The notes beneath the pieces were generated by a model. The model saw only the letters and a program-made list of their open reading frames with translations, ran no database searches and was not told the origin of the DNA. A stretch of 64,000 nt of DNA from contig CAXXWX010000013.1 in assembly GCA_963675745.2 (NCBI GenBank), positions 121,523 to 185,522 of the forward strand, written 5' to 3'. Of the stretch, positions 11,974 through 24,077 are shown in pieces. The translations under genes were made by a program, and so were the position numbers. How positions within the stretch are numbered: the first letter of the stretch is position 1; every line of letters starts with the position of its first letter. The stretch is from Phycisphaerae bacterium. GTDB lineage: Bacteria; Planctomycetota; Phycisphaerae; UBA1845; Fen-1342.

Positions 11974-12177
11974 CGCGGTATCGGAGACGCCGTTGGCTCA
12001 TTCCGCCCGGCAATGGCATGGCGCCGCCGATTGACGCATCTGGTTGGGGGACGGGGCCACAGACGCGCTCTTGTGTGGCCCGCGGCTCTCGGGGAAGATG
12101 GATGGTGGTAACCGCTGCCCCGATTGGAACGGGTTGCGGCTGACGCGCCTCGGCCCACGGCCACGGATCTGGCAATC

Positions 12178-12654
12178 ATGTCGACACCGGCCTCGGAGCA
12201 TCGTGAGATCATTGGGTGGCGCGAGTACGTTTCGTTTCCCGAGTGGGGCGTCGACAGAATTGAGGCCAAGATCGACACCGGCGCCCGCACGAGTGCAATC
12301 CATGTGAAAGATGTCGTGAAGCTGAAGGGCGGCCGTGTGCGCTTTCATCTCGTGACCAGACGCGGCAAAGCGGGCAAGCCGGACAAGACCGCCGTCGTGA
12401 GAGCCGACCTCGTTCGAACCACGCGCGTGCGTTCGAGTATCGGGCACTCGCAGGAGCGCTACGTGGTGGCAACAACGATCCGCATCGGAGGCACGCGCCG
12501 GCGCATCGAGCTCAGCCTGGTATGTCGCGCTAGAATGATCTGTCGGATGCTGCTCGGTCGCCTGGCCCTGGAGGGCTTCCTGATCGACGCCTCGCGCAAG
12601 TACATCTTTCCGCGTCCGGCCAAGACCACAGCCAAGCCGAGGGAACGACGATGA
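12178..12654 (+). CDS. RimK-associated retropepsin-like protease (RimB / 'ATP-dependent zinc protease' family)
   Basis: IIGWRE..., AKIDTGARTSAIH, VRSSIG..QERYVV, MLLGR; overlaps the rimK start (ATGA). Confidence 0.9.
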   Translation: MSTPASEHREIIGWREYVSFPEWGVDRIEAKIDTGARTSAIHVKDVVKLKGGRVRFHLVTRRGKAGKPDKTAVVRADLVRTTRVRSSIGHSQERYVVATTIRIGGTRRRIELSLVCRARMICRMLLGRLALEGFLIDASRKYIFPRPAKTTAKPRERR

Positions 12655-13862
12655 AAATTGCCATTCTATCCCGCAGCCCAAAGGCCTACAGCACCGCACG
12701 CTTGAAGCAGGCCGCCCGTGCGCGGGGTCACAAGGTCTTCGTGCTGGATACGATGAAGTTTGCCATTTCGCTTGAGCAGCGCTACCCGAATCTCTACTAC
12801 AAAGGCAAAACGCTCAGCAGTTACGACGCGGTTGTTCCGAGAATCGGGGCCTCGGTCACGCACTTCGGGACGGCGGTCGTGCGACAATTCGAGCAGATGG
12901 GAGTGTTCTGCGCCAACTCCGCGCTCGGTATTGCTCACTCCGGCGATAAGCTGCGCAGTTTGCAGATTCTCAGCAAGCACGACGTCGGCATCCCGGAGAC
13001 CGAGTTCGTACGCGCCAAAACCGATGTGCTTCCCGCGATCGAGAGAGTGGGCGGAGCACCGGTTATCATCAAACTCCTCGAGGGAACGCAAGGTGTCGGC
13101 GTGATTCTGGCCGAGTCGCGCAAGGTCGCCGAGGCGATCATCGAGACCCTTCAGAGCGCCAAGCAGAACGTGCTGATCCAGAAATTCGTGGCCGAAAGCA
13201 AGGGCACGGACATTCGAGCCTTCGTGGTCGGCGATCGGGTAGTGGCCGCCATGCGCCGCACGGCGCAAGGCCAGGAGTTCCGCAGCAACGTACACCGCGG
13301 AGGCACGGCCGAGTCGATCACACTCGACCCGGCCTACGAAGAGACCGCCGTCAGGGCCGCACAGATCATCGGCCTGCGGGTGGCTGGCGTCGACATGTTG
13401 GAGGGCAAAGACGGGCCACAGATAATGGAGGTCAACTCATCGCCCGGACTCGAGGGCATCGAGCGGGCAACCAATGCGGATGTGGCGGGGGCCGTCATCG
13501 AGTTTGTGGCCGACCAGATCGCCTTTCCCGAGATGGACATGCGGCAGCGCCTGACGGTGAGCCGAGGTTACGGGGCCGCGGAGATACTGGTTTCATCGAA
13601 GTCGGATTTATGCGGCAAGGCCATCGAGGAAACCGGCCTGCGCCTCATCGATGTTGTCGTGCTCAGCATAACGCGCGGCAGGAAGGTGATTGCGAACCCC
13701 CGTGGCGCAAGGAAGCTGCGCTCCGGCGATCGGCTGCTCTGCTTTGGCAAGCTCGAGGCCATGCGCTCGCTGATCCCGCAGCGGAAGCGCCGACGAATCA
13801 GACGGCTGACCAAGAAGGCAATTCAGGAGGCGGCCAGCCCGGAGACGGCGGCGGGGGTGTGA
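12651..13862 (+). CDS. rimK: RimK-family alpha-L-glutamate ligase with C-terminal TrkA-C (RCK_C)-like domain
   Basis: MKIAILSR...YST.RL, PRIGAS, DKLRSLQIL, KLLEGTQGVGV, FRSNVHRGG, EVNSSPGLEGIE; extra ~100-aa C-terminal ..GKAIEE..LR..DVVVLSITRG....NP....L..GDRLL. Confidence 0.92.
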   Translation: MKIAILSRSPKAYSTARLKQAARARGHKVFVLDTMKFAISLEQRYPNLYYKGKTLSSYDAVVPRIGASVTHFGTAVVRQFEQMGVFCANSALGIAHSGDKLRSLQILSKHDVGIPETEFVRAKTDVLPAIERVGGAPVIIKLLEGTQGVGVILAESRKVAEAIIETLQSAKQNVLIQKFVAESKGTDIRAFVVGDRVVAAMRRTAQGQEFRSNVHRGGTAESITLDPAYEETAVRAAQIIGLRVAGVDMLEGKDGPQIMEVNSSPGLEGIERATNADVAGAVIEFVADQIAFPEMDMRQRLTVSRGYGAAEILVSSKSDLCGKAIEETGLRLIDVVVLSITRGRKVIANPRGARKLRSGDRLLCFGKLEAMRSLIPQRKRRRIRRLTKKAIQEAASPETAAGV

Positions 13863-13875
13863 GCGTGTGGCAACG

Positions 13876-14952
13876 ATGAGGCCAATCCGCATCGGCACAA
13901 CTCAGATCGAGCCCGGTCAACGGTGCGACACCGAGCTTACCGCGACCGAAAGCTACAGCGGCATACCGGTGCGCATTCCGGTTACCGTGTGGTGCGCGCG
14001 CAAACCGGGACCGTGTGTTTTCGTGACCGCCGCTGTCCATGGTGATGAGCTCAATGGCGTGGGAATCGTCCGCGAGCTACTGCTGAACCCGCCATTCGAG
14101 CTCGACGCCGGCGCGCTGATTCTCGTGCCCGTCGTCAATATGCTGGGGCTGGATCGGCACCAGCGCTATCTGCCTGACCGCCGAGACCTGAACCGCTCGT
14201 TTCCCGGGAACTCGACGGGAAGCCTGGCCAAGCGCTTTGCGCATGTGCTGTTCGAGGCGGTTGTACCTCAATGCGACTATGGGATCGACCTGCACACCGC
14301 GGCACTGCGGCGCACCAACTACCCCAATGTCCGGGCTGACTTGCGGCAGTCGGAGACCAAGCGCCTGGCGTTTGCGCTGGGCAGTGAGCTCGTCATCAAT
14401 GGCAAGGGCCCCGAAGGTTCACTACGCCGGTCGGCCTGCGCCGTGGGGTGCCCGACTATAGTGCTCGAGGCCGGCGAGGTGTGGAAGATCGAGCCGACGG
14501 TGGTCGAGTTTGGCGTGCGCGGCATCCGCAACGTGCTGATCGAGTTGGGAATGATTGCCGGTGCGGTCACGCCGCCGTCGTATCAGGTCCGCATCGACAA
14601 GACCAAGTGGATTCGCGCGGAAGTCGGGGGAATACTACAGTTTCACGTGGCCCCGGGAGATGTCGTCGAGGAAGGACAGGCCTTGGCGACGAACTCTGAT
14701 CTGCACGGTCGCGAGAAGAACGTCATCCGTTCGCCCGTGGAAGGTGTTGTCATCGGTATGACAACACTTCCCGCGGTCACGCCGGGTGATGCGATCTGCC
14801 ACGTGGCGATTCCGCCGCGGCGTGGTATCCGAGCTATCAGGCGCGCGCGGTCACGTGCCCCGGATGAGGCACTCGATGAACGGGTCCGCGATGAGCTATC
14901 GACCAGCGTCTCGGTAACCGAACCTCGCGCGGGACATGCAGCGCGAGAGTGA
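13876..14952 (+). CDS. Succinylglutamate desuccinylase/aspartoacylase family (M14-like) hydrolase
   Basis: AAVHGDELNG, RDLNRSFPG, IDLHT, LEAGE. Confidence 0.9.
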   Translation: MRPIRIGTTQIEPGQRCDTELTATESYSGIPVRIPVTVWCARKPGPCVFVTAAVHGDELNGVGIVRELLLNPPFELDAGALILVPVVNMLGLDRHQRYLPDRRDLNRSFPGNSTGSLAKRFAHVLFEAVVPQCDYGIDLHTAALRRTNYPNVRADLRQSETKRLAFALGSELVINGKGPEGSLRRSACAVGCPTIVLEAGEVWKIEPTVVEFGVRGIRNVLIELGMIAGAVTPPSYQVRIDKTKWIRAEVGGILQFHVAPGDVVEEGQALATNSDLHGREKNVIRSPVEGVVIGMTTLPAVTPGDAICHVAIPPRRGIRAIRRARSRAPDEALDERVRDELSTSVSVTEPRAGHAARE

Positions 14953-19658: not shown

Positions 19659-21590
19659 CTATCTCGAATTGGCTCGTTGGTGCTCGGCGCGCACGTTCAC
19701 AGCACTATCGGCGCACGACGCTGCAAGGGGGTCCGACGACGTATGAGCAAACGCGGCACTTCGCCGTGGTGACTGGAGTTTCGGCGACGGGAGATGCTCG
19801 ATCGCCCAATTGATCTCCTCGCCGCTGGCTGCATCGATCATCGGGATGCGGGCCACGCGGAGGCCTTCGTAGACTTTCACCGGACCGTGTTTGAGCCGCC
19901 AAGCCCAGGTGAGCATCCTGGGGATAGTCAGCAACAGCCCGATCTGTCCGATGAACTGGTACAAGAGACGTCTCGAGGATACAGCGTCCTTGCGGATTCT
20001 CAGCAGTGCGCGGGCGGCATTGACCGGGTTGTAAAACGTGAAATAGGCGCGCAGCAGGTTCAACTGCTGCTGCCAGGGCTGCGGGTGTTGTGACGCCACG
20101 ACGTGATTACCGTCCTGCAACGCATTCGGCACAGGCTTCCTGCCCACACATTCAAACACGGACCCGGAAGTCAAGGCCGGCTCCAGGATGCGCGTGCCGA
20201 TGGCGGGGCCCAGGTAGGTGCATTGATAGCTCACCGCGCCCTGATCGAACACGTAACGCGCCTGGTTCAGCAGGCCGGAAAGATTGGTCGGGCCCGAACG
20301 CAGCGGCTGCGTGTCGCTGTGGATCATCATCACGTGCGCCTGAATACCGAGATTGTGCATCAACGCAAAGAGCTGTCCGGTACGGTCCGCGCTCTGGCCC
20401 TTCTTCACGAGTTTGCCGGTGAGGTCTTCAATCCCAAACCACAGCCCGCGCAGTCCGGCCTTGCGACACAACGGCAGCAGATCCCGGTTCTTGAATACGT
20501 CCGCCTGAGTCGCTTCGGTGTAAAACCTGATCCGTTTGCCGAGCGGTACACCGTCGGTGGTGGACCGGTCGAGTTCGCGCATCAGCGTTTCGACCGTATC
20601 GCGATCGTTAAAGAAGTTGTCATCGGTCCCAAAGAAAGCACCGATTCCGAAGCTCTCGTGGATGTGCTTGATCTCTCCCGCAAAACGTCGCGGGCTCTTG
20701 TGTCGCCGTGTGCGCTGGTTTGCGGCGGGAATCGGGCAGTAGGGGCAATTGAAGCGGCAGCCCTGCGTGGCGATTACCGAGGCGATGGGCGATAGCCTGC
20801 CGATGCGCTTTGGTGTGCAAGGCTGCGCGGCCAGCGTGTGGCGGCGGTGCGGCGGCTCGATCATGCGAAAGCCGGCGTCAGGCATCGGCAGTTCATCGAG
20901 GTCGCGCAGGAGCCGCTGCACGCCCGTGTTGACGGCGACCGGTTCGCAGCTATGCGCGTCCGGCGACAGATACACCAGTCCCGGCACACTCTTGAGCCGG
21001 CCACTCAGCCGGGCGTTGTCGAAAGCAGCGCGCGCGGTTTGATGATCATGCCGATCCGCCAGGATGGTATGCAGCAGGTCCAGGAGCACGAAGGCTTCGC
21101 CGGTGGCGACACAGTCGGCACCGATGCCCGGCTGTGGACCGATCTCGAAGAAGTCGGTCGGCTCGTAGATGGCCTTGGGGCCTCCCGCGAGTATCAGCGG
21201 GCGCTCATCACCCATGCGGTGCGCATCTCGAACCAGCTCATACGCCGGCTTGACGTGTACCTGCATGGACGACACCAGCAGGATGTCCAACGGTCTGCCG
21301 TTGAGCTGCATGCGGCTGGGCAGAACATTCGGCGACCACTGCTGCAACACGATGCGGAGGTTGCGGAAACCGGCATCGTGCAGCACGTCCCCCAGCAGGC
21401 GAACCGAGCAGGGCGCCATCCGCTTGTCCGCGTACCAATAAGGCAGCATCCGCGTGCGGAAATCAAACGCGTTGACTATTCCGATCGCCAGCTCGTGAGC
21501 ATGCTTGAACTGCCGCAGGGCGTCGACGCGCTCCCGGAATCGGTCGTCCGGCAGGTAGACATCATCACGGTCTCTTCGTGGAAGTTCCAT
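19659..21590 (-). CDS. B12-binding-domain radical SAM protein
   Basis: QGCRFNCPYC (CxxxCxxC), GTDDNFF, WFGIE; N-terminal cobalamin-binding-like region (ILAGGP, GEA). Confidence 0.85.
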   Translation of the reverse strand: MELPRRDRDDVYLPDDRFRERVDALRQFKHAHELAIGIVNAFDFRTRMLPYWYADKRMAPCSVRLLGDVLHDAGFRNLRIVLQQWSPNVLPSRMQLNGRPLDILLVSSMQVHVKPAYELVRDAHRMGDERPLILAGGPKAIYEPTDFFEIGPQPGIGADCVATGEAFVLLDLLHTILADRHDHQTARAAFDNARLSGRLKSVPGLVYLSPDAHSCEPVAVNTGVQRLLRDLDELPMPDAGFRMIEPPHRRHTLAAQPCTPKRIGRLSPIASVIATQGCRFNCPYCPIPAANQRTRRHKSPRRFAGEIKHIHESFGIGAFFGTDDNFFNDRDTVETLMRELDRSTTDGVPLGKRIRFYTEATQADVFKNRDLLPLCRKAGLRGLWFGIEDLTGKLVKKGQSADRTGQLFALMHNLGIQAHVMMIHSDTQPLRSGPTNLSGLLNQARYVFDQGAVSYQCTYLGPAIGTRILEPALTSGSVFECVGRKPVPNALQDGNHVVASQHPQPWQQQLNLLRAYFTFYNPVNAARALLRIRKDAVSSRRLLYQFIGQIGLLLTIPRMLTWAWRLKHGPVKVYEGLRVARIPMIDAASGEEINWAIEHLPSPKLQSPRRSAAFAHTSSDPLAASCADSAVNVRAEHQRANSR

Positions 21591-21593
21591 CGC

Positions 21594-21878
21594 TCAGTCT
21601 CGATGACGTTCGTTGCGGTACAGTCTGAGTCCCGACTTCGGGTCGCTCTTGCGAACATCCAGCGTCGTGTTTGCCAACGCCTTCGATACGGCCTCATCCA
21701 GCAGCAGCACCTTGCGGCCATCGTGCGTAAACGCTGTGTCGTCAGCGGATTCGTGATCGAGGCGCAACGTCCAACCACCTTCGCGGCGTGTGAACCTCAG
21801 GGCCATGCCTTGAGCGGCCTTCTTGCGGGCCAGCCGGTTGGATAAGCGACCAAGTGCGGTTTTCGTTACGGTCAACAT
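21594..21878 (-). CDS. HesB/IscA-like small protein lacking cysteines
   Basis: MLTVTKTAL..L......ALR.......L.LD.....D......GRKVLLLD pattern; 3 nt upstream of the radical SAM start. Confidence 0.7.
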   Translation of the reverse strand: MLTVTKTALGRLSNRLARKKAAQGMALRFTRREGGWTLRLDHESADDTAFTHDGRKVLLLDEAVSKALANTTLDVRKSDPKSGLRLYRNERHRD

Positions 21879-21975: not shown

Positions 21976-22407
21976 TCATGTTCCGGCCGAGTCCTCTGCG
22001 GAAGGATCACCGTTGCTCCAAACGTCGGTTTCGACGTTGTCTGCAAGCAGGAAGACCTGCACGACCGTGCCGCTCGCGAACGTTCTGACCACTGCACCGG
22101 TACTCGGCTCGACCTCAGCGGTCGCCTCACGCACCTTCGCGCCGGTAATCCGTTCAATGTCGCGCCGGAGTGTGCCCGCGGCGCTGGCGAAAAGCTGCCG
22201 GTGATACTCCTGTACCCTGGCGGCGCCGTCGGGACTCTTGGCCAGGGCCTTCTCGGCTTCTGACATGGCTCCATGCAGCGTTATGACCAGCGCATCGTTG
22301 CTCAGCACGACCGTAGCGGACGTTGGGGCATGGCCGGTTCGTTCGCGCTCGAACGTCTTGGCCGCTTGGGCAATCTGCTGCGCCATGCTCGATTTGGGCT
22401 TGTCCAA
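21976..22407 (-). CDS. DUF2294 (MpsC-like) protein, paralog 1
   Basis: FERERTGHAP, LVITLHGAMSEAEKAL, QEYHRQLF, IERITGAKV; TTG start with AAGGA RBS. Confidence 0.85.
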   Translation of the reverse strand: MDKPKSSMAQQIAQAAKTFERERTGHAPTSATVVLSNDALVITLHGAMSEAEKALAKSPDGAARVQEYHRQLFASAAGTLRRDIERITGAKVREATAEVEPSTGAVVRTFASGTVVQVFLLADNVETDVWSNGDPSAEDSAGT

Positions 22408-22454
22408 AAGAGCTTATCCTTGTCGGTTGCTGCCGTCCCTGAAATTGAAGCCAT

Positions 22455-22504
22455 AGAAAAAGCCGATGTGGTCGAACACGCGGTGTGTTCGACCACATCG
22501 GCTT
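22455..22504 (-). terminator. Intrinsic terminator (attenuator) in the leader of the DUF2294 operon
   Basis: Perfect 20-bp inverted repeat 22460-22479 / 22485-22504, ending in a UUUUUCU tract on the minus strand, about 50 nt upstream of the start codon. Confidence 0.85.
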
Positions 22505-22562
22505 ACTCGTCAACGAGCCCTCCGGCCGTAGCCGGGTTGCCCTTCAAATCGTCATCCGACGT
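22455..22562 (-). ncRNA. Candidate cis-regulatory leader RNA (riboswitch/attenuator-like)
   Basis: CCGGC-UACG-GCCGG tetraloop hairpin (22522-22535); 5' ACGUCGG (22556-22562) can pair with CCGAUGU (22495-22501) in the terminator 5' arm. Confidence 0.65.
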
Positions 22563-22599
22563 CTGAGCGCCAATTCACGAGCGGAACATTGCACGGGCT

Positions 22600-22650
22600 T
22601 TGCGCTCGCATGCACTGAGATTATTATAACACACCGCCGGTGGGAGGCAA
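22600..22650. promoter_or_regulatory. Overlapping divergent sigma70-like promoters
   Basis: Minus strand: TTGCCT (22650-22645)-N16-TATAAT (22628-22623) with TGn extension. Plus strand: TTGCGC (22600-22605)-N16-TATTAT (22622-22627). Confidence 0.65.
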
Positions 22651-22764
22651 GCGAGTGTCCCCCGGCAGGGCAGTGTGCAACGGGCCGCGTGAAAGAGAGC
22701 GGCGCACATCCGCATGGTCTCGCCTGCGGCCGTAGCCAGCTTGACGAAACGCGTTGAGGGCATC

Positions 22765-23145
22765 ATGAAGACCCAGGGAGAAATCGAAGCCGCGATTTGT
22801 GAAGGTGTCCGGCGTTTTGAGCAGGAGTACATGGGCCGAGGCCCCAAGGACATTCACACGCACTTGATTGGCGATCTTCTCGTCGTTCGACTTCTGGGGG
22901 TTTTGACCGCAGCCGAGCAGCAGCTCGTCGACTCGCTTCCGGCGGACAAAGGGCGAGGACTGCTCAAGCAGGTCAGAACGCAGTTGATCGAAACCGCCCG
23001 CCCGGTCCTCGAGACCACGGTTCAGGAAGTCACCGGCAGCGAGGTCGTCAGCCTGCACCACGATATCAGCACACTCACCGGTGAGGAAATCGTGCTCTTC
23101 ACTCTGGCCAAGCCTCCCGCGTTTCGCGAGAAGAAGTCCAAGTGA
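22765..23145 (+). CDS. DUF2294 (MpsC-like) protein, paralog 2
   Basis: MKTQGEIEAAIC..RRFEQEYMGRGPKDI, GVLTAAEQQL, LHHDISTLTGEE..LFTL; GAGG RBS. Confidence 0.9.
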   Translation: MKTQGEIEAAICEGVRRFEQEYMGRGPKDIHTHLIGDLLVVRLLGVLTAAEQQLVDSLPADKGRGLLKQVRTQLIETARPVLETTVQEVTGSEVVSLHHDISTLTGEEIVLFTLAKPPAFREKKSK

Positions 23146-23173: not shown

Positions 23174-23416
23174 CTAGTGCTCGCTTGAGTCGGCGCTTCC
23201 CTCGTCCGCACCGCGCACACCCTCCCCAACATCGTGCACACCCACGCCATCATCGCGCATGACCTCGCCGTTTTCATCGAGCGTTGCGGCATCGGCATCG
23301 GCGCGGTTCTGGCGGCGTTCACGTTTCTGGGCGGCTTTCTCGGCTTTGTCGAGTTCGCGCTGCCGCTTCTGATACTCGCGTTGGCGTTTCTGAACGGACG
23401 GTCGCTTTCGTGCCAT
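23174..23416 (-). CDS. Small protein with basic coiled-coil N-terminus and acidic tail
   Basis: MARKRPSVQKRQRE...KAAQKRERR; AAGGGAG RBS; downstream of the RRM gene. Confidence 0.7.
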   Translation of the reverse strand: MARKRPSVQKRQREYQKRQRELDKAEKAAQKRERRQNRADADAATLDENGEVMRDDGVGVHDVGEGVRGADEGSADSSEH

Positions 23417-23786: not shown

Positions 23787-24077
23787 CTACCAGCGTCCGC
23801 CGCGTCGGCCACCGCTGTTGCCGGCCGGGCGTGGCTTGGCTTCGTTGACCTTGATCGTACGGCCACCGCACTCCGTGCCATCCAGTGCCGCGATCGCCGC
23901 CTCAGCCTCCGCGTCCGAGCTCATTTCGACAAACCCGAAGCCCTTGCTGCGGCCGGTATCGCGGTCGTTGATCACGGTCGCGCTGTCCACGGTCCCATGG
24001 TCGGCGAACATCTGCTGAAGGTCATTGCCGGTAACGTCATAGCCAAGGTTTCCCACGTACAGTTTCCTACCCATCAT
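23787..24077 (-). CDS. RRM (RNP-1) RNA-binding protein
   Basis: KLYVGNL (RNP2), DRDTGRSKGFGFVEM (RNP1), VNEAKPR, Gly/Arg-rich tail. Confidence 0.95.
   Translation of the reverse strand: MMGRKLYVGNLGYDVTGNDLQQMFADHGTVDSATVINDRDTGRSKGFGFVEMSSDAEAEAAIAALDGTECGGRTIKVNEAKPRPAGNSGGRRGGRW

Follow-up and report, generated by a model that had tools for sequence, protein, structure and literature searches.

The window analysed here is a 64,000-nucleotide stretch of a Phycisphaerae contig (CAXXWX010000013.1), and the element under study is an RNA leader at positions 22407–22650 of its minus strand, flanked by two genes of the MpsC (DUF2294) family. The first gene that the leader would regulate is type-A mpsC (21976–22407, minus), a 143-aa paralogue of divergent sequence (PF10057, 72.8 bits) whose TTG start at 22407 is backed by homologues (MDKP...). 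It is followed by a small HesB/IscA-like gene (21594–21878, minus), which has a weak match to NCBIfam NF038090 (E = 5.5e-4, below the cut-off) and is present in 10 of 80 related loci, and by a gene for a radical SAM protein (19659–21590, minus) with weak likeness to the B12-dependent BchE, HpnR and HpnJ. Both are probably co-transcribed with type-A mpsC, and at locus L012 the radical SAM gene itself stands directly 3′ of a motif copy. Divergent from the leader is type-B, or canonical, mpsC (22765–23145, plus), which encodes 126 aa (PF10057, 119.6 bits) and is an addition to the earlier note on this DNA. For these two MpsC genes a profile–profile comparison gives a probability of 98.6, and PF10057 is the only domain found in either protein. 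A small Lys/Arg-rich ORF (23174–23416, minus) and the gene of an RRM protein (23787–24074, minus) adjoin type-B mpsC and recur in 3 and 13 of the 80 related loci, respectively. Farther off in the window (12124–14952, plus) is a cluster of three genes whose products, by eye, resemble an ATP-dependent zinc protease, RimK and a desuccinylase.

Model R1 finds three motif copies in the window genome. A second module in the same genome (G000:C15:12134–14797; loci L002, L068 and L069) has one motif before a type-A mpsC and a second before a GlsB/YmgE gene, with type-B mpsC again lying divergent. The genome, which is 91% complete, has no DabA and gave no match for SbtA; its DUF4914 gene (C26) has no model R1 or R2 match, and there is one csrA gene.

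Starting from the 5′ end, the leader is preceded by a sigma-70-type promoter, TTGCCT-N16-TATAAT with an extended −10 (TG), at 22623–22650 (minus; 10/12 match). This is the single promoter-like site between 21500 and 23500, where shuffled sequences average 0.3, and it suggests a transcription start near 22616. The distance from promoter to TTG start is 216 nt, close to the earlier estimate of about 210. Among subtype copies, 21 of 112 have a promoter site of at least 9/12 within 140 nt upstream, as against 3.8% of shuffles. The RNA then forms an irregular hairpin supported by covariation (22497–22560, minus), which consists of P1 (22560–22556 with 22501–22497), a core 3×3 loop (22555–22553 with 22504–22502), P2 (22552–22551 with 22506–22505), P3 (22544–22539 with 22518–22512) and P4 (22535–22531 with 22526–22522). 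An intrinsic terminator follows (22457–22504, minus), with a stem of 20 pairs at 22504–22460 and a U5 tail at 22461–22457. The terminator's 5′ arm also serves as the 3′ strand of the conserved hairpin core, and the segment ACGUCGG (22562–22556) is complementary to CCGAUGU (22501–22495). The promoter, the hairpin, the terminator and this complementarity all lie where the earlier note had placed them. The leader as a whole has a minimum free energy of −100.6 kcal/mol (z = −4.05), which none of 200 shuffles matches.

Both folds covary, as judged from an alignment of 30 sequences of the subtype that are related to one another. In the antiterminator fold, 94.1% of 597 cells are paired and 10 of 20 pairs show double changes, a result reached by 0 of 500 shuffles; in the terminator fold, double changes occur at 12 of 20 pairs (60 cells). 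Both outscore 500 shuffles as well as slid controls; the relatedness of the sequences applies to these comparisons too. A plain DNA search matched 23 of 201 class genomes, every time over the same 108 nt. The proposal that the two folds exclude each other, and that the layout is that of an ON-type attenuator, is borne out by this double covariation, by the conserved overlap of core and terminator and by the predicted leader folds described below. The cUNCGg tetraloop fared differently: it is present in the window copy, but the apical loop varies among homologues and cUACGg occurs in the window copy only, so the UACG loop is incidental and was dropped as a feature.

A wider family alignment of 49 sequences, for which the descriptor had already selected some of the pairs, reduces the element to its essentials. 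Two G–C pairs are invariant (48/48), and the stem next to them covaries, with pair 16–66 present as AU in 45, CG in 2 and GC in 1, pair 17–65 as UA in 25 and CG in 19, and a third pair in five different types. G15 faces A67, and both are invariant family-wide. The family core thus consists of two G–C pairs, a 3×3 loop, a G–A pair and a covarying stem, with about 7 invariant bases, and the outer P1 pairs are poorly kept outside planctomycetes. The segments AUGAC and GAGUAAG, once taken for unpaired junctions, in fact face each other and form this conserved core. A kink-turn reading of the GUU/GA segment was rejected because the following G and A vary (G 64/A 41 and A 88/G 17; n = 112).

Folding predictions show how the two structures would compete. 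When the leader ends at P1, the core pair is predicted to form, with probability above 0.5, in 46 of 48 family members; when the leader is complete, the terminator is predicted to form and the core to be destroyed in 48 of 48. The terminator thus wins once the whole leader is made, so that the default state would be OFF. One of the two members in which the core pair is not predicted is the window copy (core pair probability 0.03), because a private 5′ hairpin with GGAU in its loop (22544–22566, minus), another addition to the earlier note, is predicted by folding to out-compete the conserved fold. For this leader the ON fold is worth −27.6 kcal/mol (−45.0 including the residual top hairpin), as against −53.2 for OFF.

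These predictions bear on the idea that MpsC binds the RNA for titration, with short terminated leaders acting as sponges that set the level of free MpsC or the ratio of type A to type B, and read-through being secondary. The many copies per genome (up to about 9) and the strong terminators would suit such a role, but a terminated RNA would not present an MpsC site, because the terminator, once formed, breaks up the core (48/48), and every copy lies 5′ of a co-directional gene (ORF called for 167 of 169). We consider this scheme improbable.

The GGA in the private hairpin raises the question of another RNA-binding protein, as GGA in a hairpin loop is the shape of a CsrA site; CsrA or the neighbouring RRM protein could regulate the planctomycete subtype. 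Of 111 subtype copies, 103 retain GGA, and in the window copy it does sit in a hairpin loop; csrA lies within 27 of 80 loci and an RRM gene within 13. As a conserved fold, however, the GGA-loop hairpin had to be rejected, since it dominates in 1 of 111 copies and shows no double changes. GGA is also not kept family-wide, and mpsC is found at 80 of 80 loci (by selection), with the RNA at 74 of them. Control by CsrA or an RRM protein appears slightly more doubtful still than titration.

By sequence and structure search the family is uncatalogued. In Rfam 15, the best hit for window 22300–22900 is a microRNA model on the terminator (19 bits, E = 0.39), below the gathering threshold, and the element in sets of 9, 3 and 17 loci gave no match, in agreement with the earlier statement that it fits no known riboswitch class. 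Term look-ups in the main texts of PMC11109978, PMC8632094, PMC5737381 and 10.64898/2026.09.15.751765 and in the supplements of PMC8632094 and PMC13714241 gave nothing on the family. We found no description of the RNA in the literature searched, and the motif-catalogue supplements of PMC11109978, PMC5737381 and PMC5314783 could list it under another name; nor did that literature yield a CO2- or bicarbonate-responsive attenuator. On the evidence of conservation and covariation, the leader is a real and conserved attenuator of the ON type, whose two folds exclude each other.

At E ≤ 1e-3, model R1 detects the RNA in 29 of 150 class genomes, with a score of at least 60 bits in 21; a single genome has up to about 9 sense copies. 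In a phylum sample it is detected in 6 of 150 genomes. Class genomes that bear mpsC but are missed by R1 have a similar leader, which possesses a promoter of its own, just 3′ of mpsC and before DUF4914 or PEPCK, and the same core occurs in Planctomycetota, Bacilli and Clostridia. In Anoxybacillus amylolyticus it separates mpsC from sbtA; in Acetoanaerobium noterae it comes after mpsC, and in Bacillus-type operons that end in mpsC it stands about 4.5 kb upstream, before a dabB/mpsA-like gene. At 80 metagenomic mpsC loci chosen by protein alone, some of them near-identical, the strict descriptor gives 46 matches as against 4 in shuffled sequence, and a relaxed one matches 54 of 80 as against 0–3 in shuffles, a few of the matches being spurious and many of the misses being short contigs. 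A locus whose MpsC falls in the S. aureus cluster (L267) escapes model R2 but has a variant core, with A–U replaced by C–G, whose fold agrees with prediction and gives way to the terminator. The same core, set over a terminator, is present in the S. aureus mpsA leader and in the Bacillus-type dabB/dabA leaders. Six loci (L248, L249, L252, L253, L256 and L266) have two core hairpins in tandem just after mpsC, before one terminator and a dabB-like gene, an arrangement that suggests cooperative control.

Several observations accompany this distribution. At the motif (window 22410–22591), summed contig depth rises sharply in two DNA metagenomes (465–895 versus 10–13 in X2), which would fit a sequence shared by many other organisms or copies. 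The one RNA run, where the share was small, gave no contig covering the leader. Another long structured leader, with a promoter and a terminator-like end, lies upstream of mpsC in Anoxybacillus (L125:8800–8995) and has no Rfam match at the gathering threshold. On a Staphylococcus pettenkoferi plasmid (L126:4180–4507), mpsAB-orf-mpsC sits between IS6 copies; a terminator is present in its leader, but the core cannot be recognised there. The planctomycete module also appears in records titled archaeon (L184), Deltaproteobacteria (L202) and Bacillota (L204); the latter two titles look wrong, since phylum searches centred on these records gave the Planctomycetota sample again, and the archaeal case, at a contig end, may reflect mis-binning or transfer.

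The motif might also be a mobile repeat, or a site acting at the DNA level, that has no RNA function. Multi-copy, clustered occurrence would fit, but the covariation is strand-specific and tolerates G–U pairs in two exclusive folds, there is a U-tail, the orientation is fixed 5′ of genes, and the motif persists from planctomycetes to staphylococci. We regard this reading as largely refuted and the least probable of those considered.

The neighbour of the RNA is far more constant than its target. When loci are picked by type-B MpsC alone, the RNA is found divergent within 800 nt at 67 of 76 testable loci, and it is present at 74 of 80 loci selected for mpsC. In one sample of 150 Planctomycetota class genomes, whose kin are not independent and four of whose R2 matches belong to the training set, 22 genomes have both RNA and mpsC, 3 the RNA only, 6 mpsC only and 119 neither. 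Three of the six have variant leaders by eye, and in the other three mpsC is partial or at contig edges. Ten genomes with DabA lack mpsC and RNA alike, and since RNA-bearing genomes mostly have mpsC, the RNA follows MpsC and not the transporter. Because mpsC is usually upstream or divergent, it is as a rule not under the control of the switch. As is general for protein-dependent antitermination, a dedicated gene that would act in trans thus co-occurs with the RNA and stands outside its control, five orphan genomes excepted. Those five (G023, G026, G079, G123 and G255; 89–99% complete) have a single RNA copy each, and mpsC was not found in them; the copies (L084, L087, L085, L086 and L112) precede desaturase, P-type ATPase, cyclase-like or Ig-domain genes, and several are degenerate, while the G079 copy looks intact. 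Co-transfer of RNA and mpsC as a cassette, without binding, could also produce this co-occurrence.

Downstream genes divide the family in two. Of the 49 first ORFs, 37 were run against Pfam, the other 12 being near-duplicates, subtype-1 copies, mpsC or mis-calls; one of the 37 belongs to subtype 1, which leaves 36 outside the planctomycete subtype. Of these, 27 are carbon-uptake or (de)carboxylation genes: 5 SbtA, 15 MpsA/DabB-like, 5 PEPCK, 1 PEP carboxylase and 1 AIR-carboxylase-like. Three more match the gene at the ybcF position, and 6 are other or unnamed. For the window subtype, with 169 copies and heuristic ORF calls, type-A mpsC is next in 63 and no ORF is called in 2. The other 104 copies precede KaiC-like ATPases, GlsB/YmgE, ice-binding proteins, sigma factors, kinases, DUF892, BON, CsrA, desaturases and many unnamed proteins, among which there is no carbon-uptake family. 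SbtA, MpsA, DabA, PEPCK, DUF4914 and gamma-CA are found in 0 of 80 planctomycete subtype loci within the fetched flanks. As far as gene content can tell, the planctomycete subtype fronts paralogous mpsC and stress or envelope genes, not carbon genes. An HCO3−/CO2 signal, as once suggested for this leader, is hence reasonable for the family, with its 27 of 36 carbon genes, but nothing at the window locus points to carbon transport; bicarbonate transport as the local target was rejected, given a genome without DabA and 0 of 80 loci with carbon genes.

The MpsC proteins themselves also fall into distinct groups. The type-B proteins that adjoin subtype-1 RNA all fall in a single clade (99/99), apart from those beside the other subtype in the same class, though the rows were chosen by likeness to the window protein, so that the clade is partly due to selection. 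Type B keeps R25, R42, K68, R71, H98 and D100, and type A lacks all six. MpsC is not basic (pI 6.1). Its structure model is confident (pLDDT 93.3), but it has no PDB sequence match, no Foldseek match at E ≤ 1e-3 and no usable match in an Atlas feature search; the best VIA Z is 6.6, and RbfA, of KH type II, scores 5.5 (rmsd 4.1 over 89).

According to the accessible part of PMC6689103, an S. aureus ΔmpsC strain grows normally in air, mpsAB on its own suffices to complement an E. coli CA mutant, and mpsA falls 1.7–2.5-fold in 5% CO2. Because of the first two results, MpsC is not an essential activator in S. aureus; leaky read-through could explain why ΔmpsC has no growth defect. The third bears on the sign of the signal: given lower mpsA in 5% CO2, an ON riboswitch that binds bicarbonate would have the wrong sign for importers, while a protein inactivated by CO2 or bicarbonate would have the right one. 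The available text of the preprint on the B. subtilis bicarbonate importer operon states that its regulating mechanisms remain to be explored (bioRxiv 10.64898/2026.09.08.750065).

The earlier note had left a choice between a ligand and a protein as the thing sensed. A protein-free ON riboswitch might respond to a metabolite of carbon shortage or stress, such as PEP, pyruvate or acetyl-CoA as unfixed carboxylase substrates, or to Na+, with mpsC co-inherited. Such a switch would account for the classic overlap of aptamer and terminator, for the tandem copies before one terminator at six loci, as in cooperative riboswitches, for the orphan copies and the reported lack of a ΔmpsC phenotype, and for the coherent carbon regulon of 27 of 36 downstream genes. 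It is harder to reconcile with an invariant core that is very small, with an mpsC that stays adjacent though usually outside the control of the switch, with DabA genomes that lack mpsC and RNA together, and with a planctomycete regulon that is unrelated to carbon and yet keeps the core. A small invariant core and a poor outer P1 are what is expected of a site held by a protein. We therefore judge the riboswitch unlikely, if a serious contender, and the evidence favours protein-dependent antitermination.

Our best reading, to which we give a probability of roughly 60%, is that MpsC binds the hairpin and antiterminates, the signal probably having been CO2 or bicarbonate ancestrally. The nascent RNA would fold into the irregular hairpin, whose base takes up the terminator 5′ arm; on completion of the leader the terminator would win, leaving expression OFF by default. 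At the window locus the likely regulator is the divergent type-B mpsC at 22765–23145 and not the downstream type-A gene. Active type-B MpsC would hold the core of G–C pairs, 3×3 loop and G–A pair, perhaps together with a second, AA/GUU element higher up, and with the hairpin held, polymerase would go on to transcribe type-A mpsC and, behind it, the HesB-like and radical SAM genes. Type-A MpsC, with its conserved basic residues lost, probably modulates the system by feedback. Across the wider family, the protein would sense inorganic carbon and shortage would turn uptake and carboxylation genes ON; in the planctomycete subtype, one MpsC clade would drive many RNA copies before stress and envelope genes.

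A broader proposal, which we advance tentatively and at somewhat less than even odds, is that MpsC/DUF2294 is a hitherto unrecognised family of RNA-binding antiterminators sensing CO2 or bicarbonate. It would constitute the first cross-phylum attenuation system for inorganic carbon (SbtA, MpsAB/DabAB, PEP carboxylase and PEPCK, including S. aureus mpsABC), rewired in planctomycetes, through one clade and a disarmed paralogue, into a multi-locus, RNA-level general-stress regulon in which the window leader is an autoregulatory node. If true, this would offer a mechanism for the drop of mpsA in high CO2 described in the accessible part of PMC6689103 and for the regulation of the B. subtilis importer operon. 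It would also give DUF2294/MpsC a function, and the planctomycete subtype would show this switch extended to a stress regulon of dispersed loci. As family members occur in tractable hosts, protein control and ligand control are directly testable.

Among the closest parallels are protein-dependent antiterminators. In BglG, SacY and LicT systems, the RAT is an imperfect hairpin with internal loops over the terminator 5′ arm, the default is OFF and the regulator gene adjoins its target. The window hairpin is likewise imperfect and overlaps the terminator 5′ arm, with a putative regulator gene beside the target. BglG and SacY take PTS phosphorylation as their signal, which MpsC would not, and the RAT is not known to share its sequence with the window RNA. 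Unlike BglG and SacY, MpsC has PF10057 only, with no CAT or PRD domain and no PDB sequence match. HutP, PyrR and ANTAR exemplify ligand-gated attenuation by RNA-binding, in which a small protein turns a metabolite signal into a terminator choice, and ANTAR runs multi-copy regulons, as the MpsC-linked RNA does. Unlike them, MpsC has no sequence match or clear fold match to solved proteins, and the window RNA is a single irregular hairpin, with neither UAG repeats nor a dual six-base-loop hairpin.

The S. aureus mpsABC and B. subtilis ndhF-mpsB-canC operons carry the same MpsC family, and in the accessible parts of both reports neither a leader element nor a regulatory role of MpsC is described (PMC6689103; bioRxiv 10.64898/2026.09.08.750065); the words terminator, leader and riboswitch do not occur in the available text of the latter. 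Unlike those operons, the window subtype controls no carbon gene. The Na+-I riboswitch (DUF1646) has, in the accessible text of PMC9337991, two hairpins with conserved bases at the base of P1 and in the P2 loop. By that description the MpsC-linked RNA is set apart, having one hairpin and a variable apical loop; the two are alike in being ON switches in which a conserved fold excludes an intrinsic terminator, and in their association with ion-transport genes.
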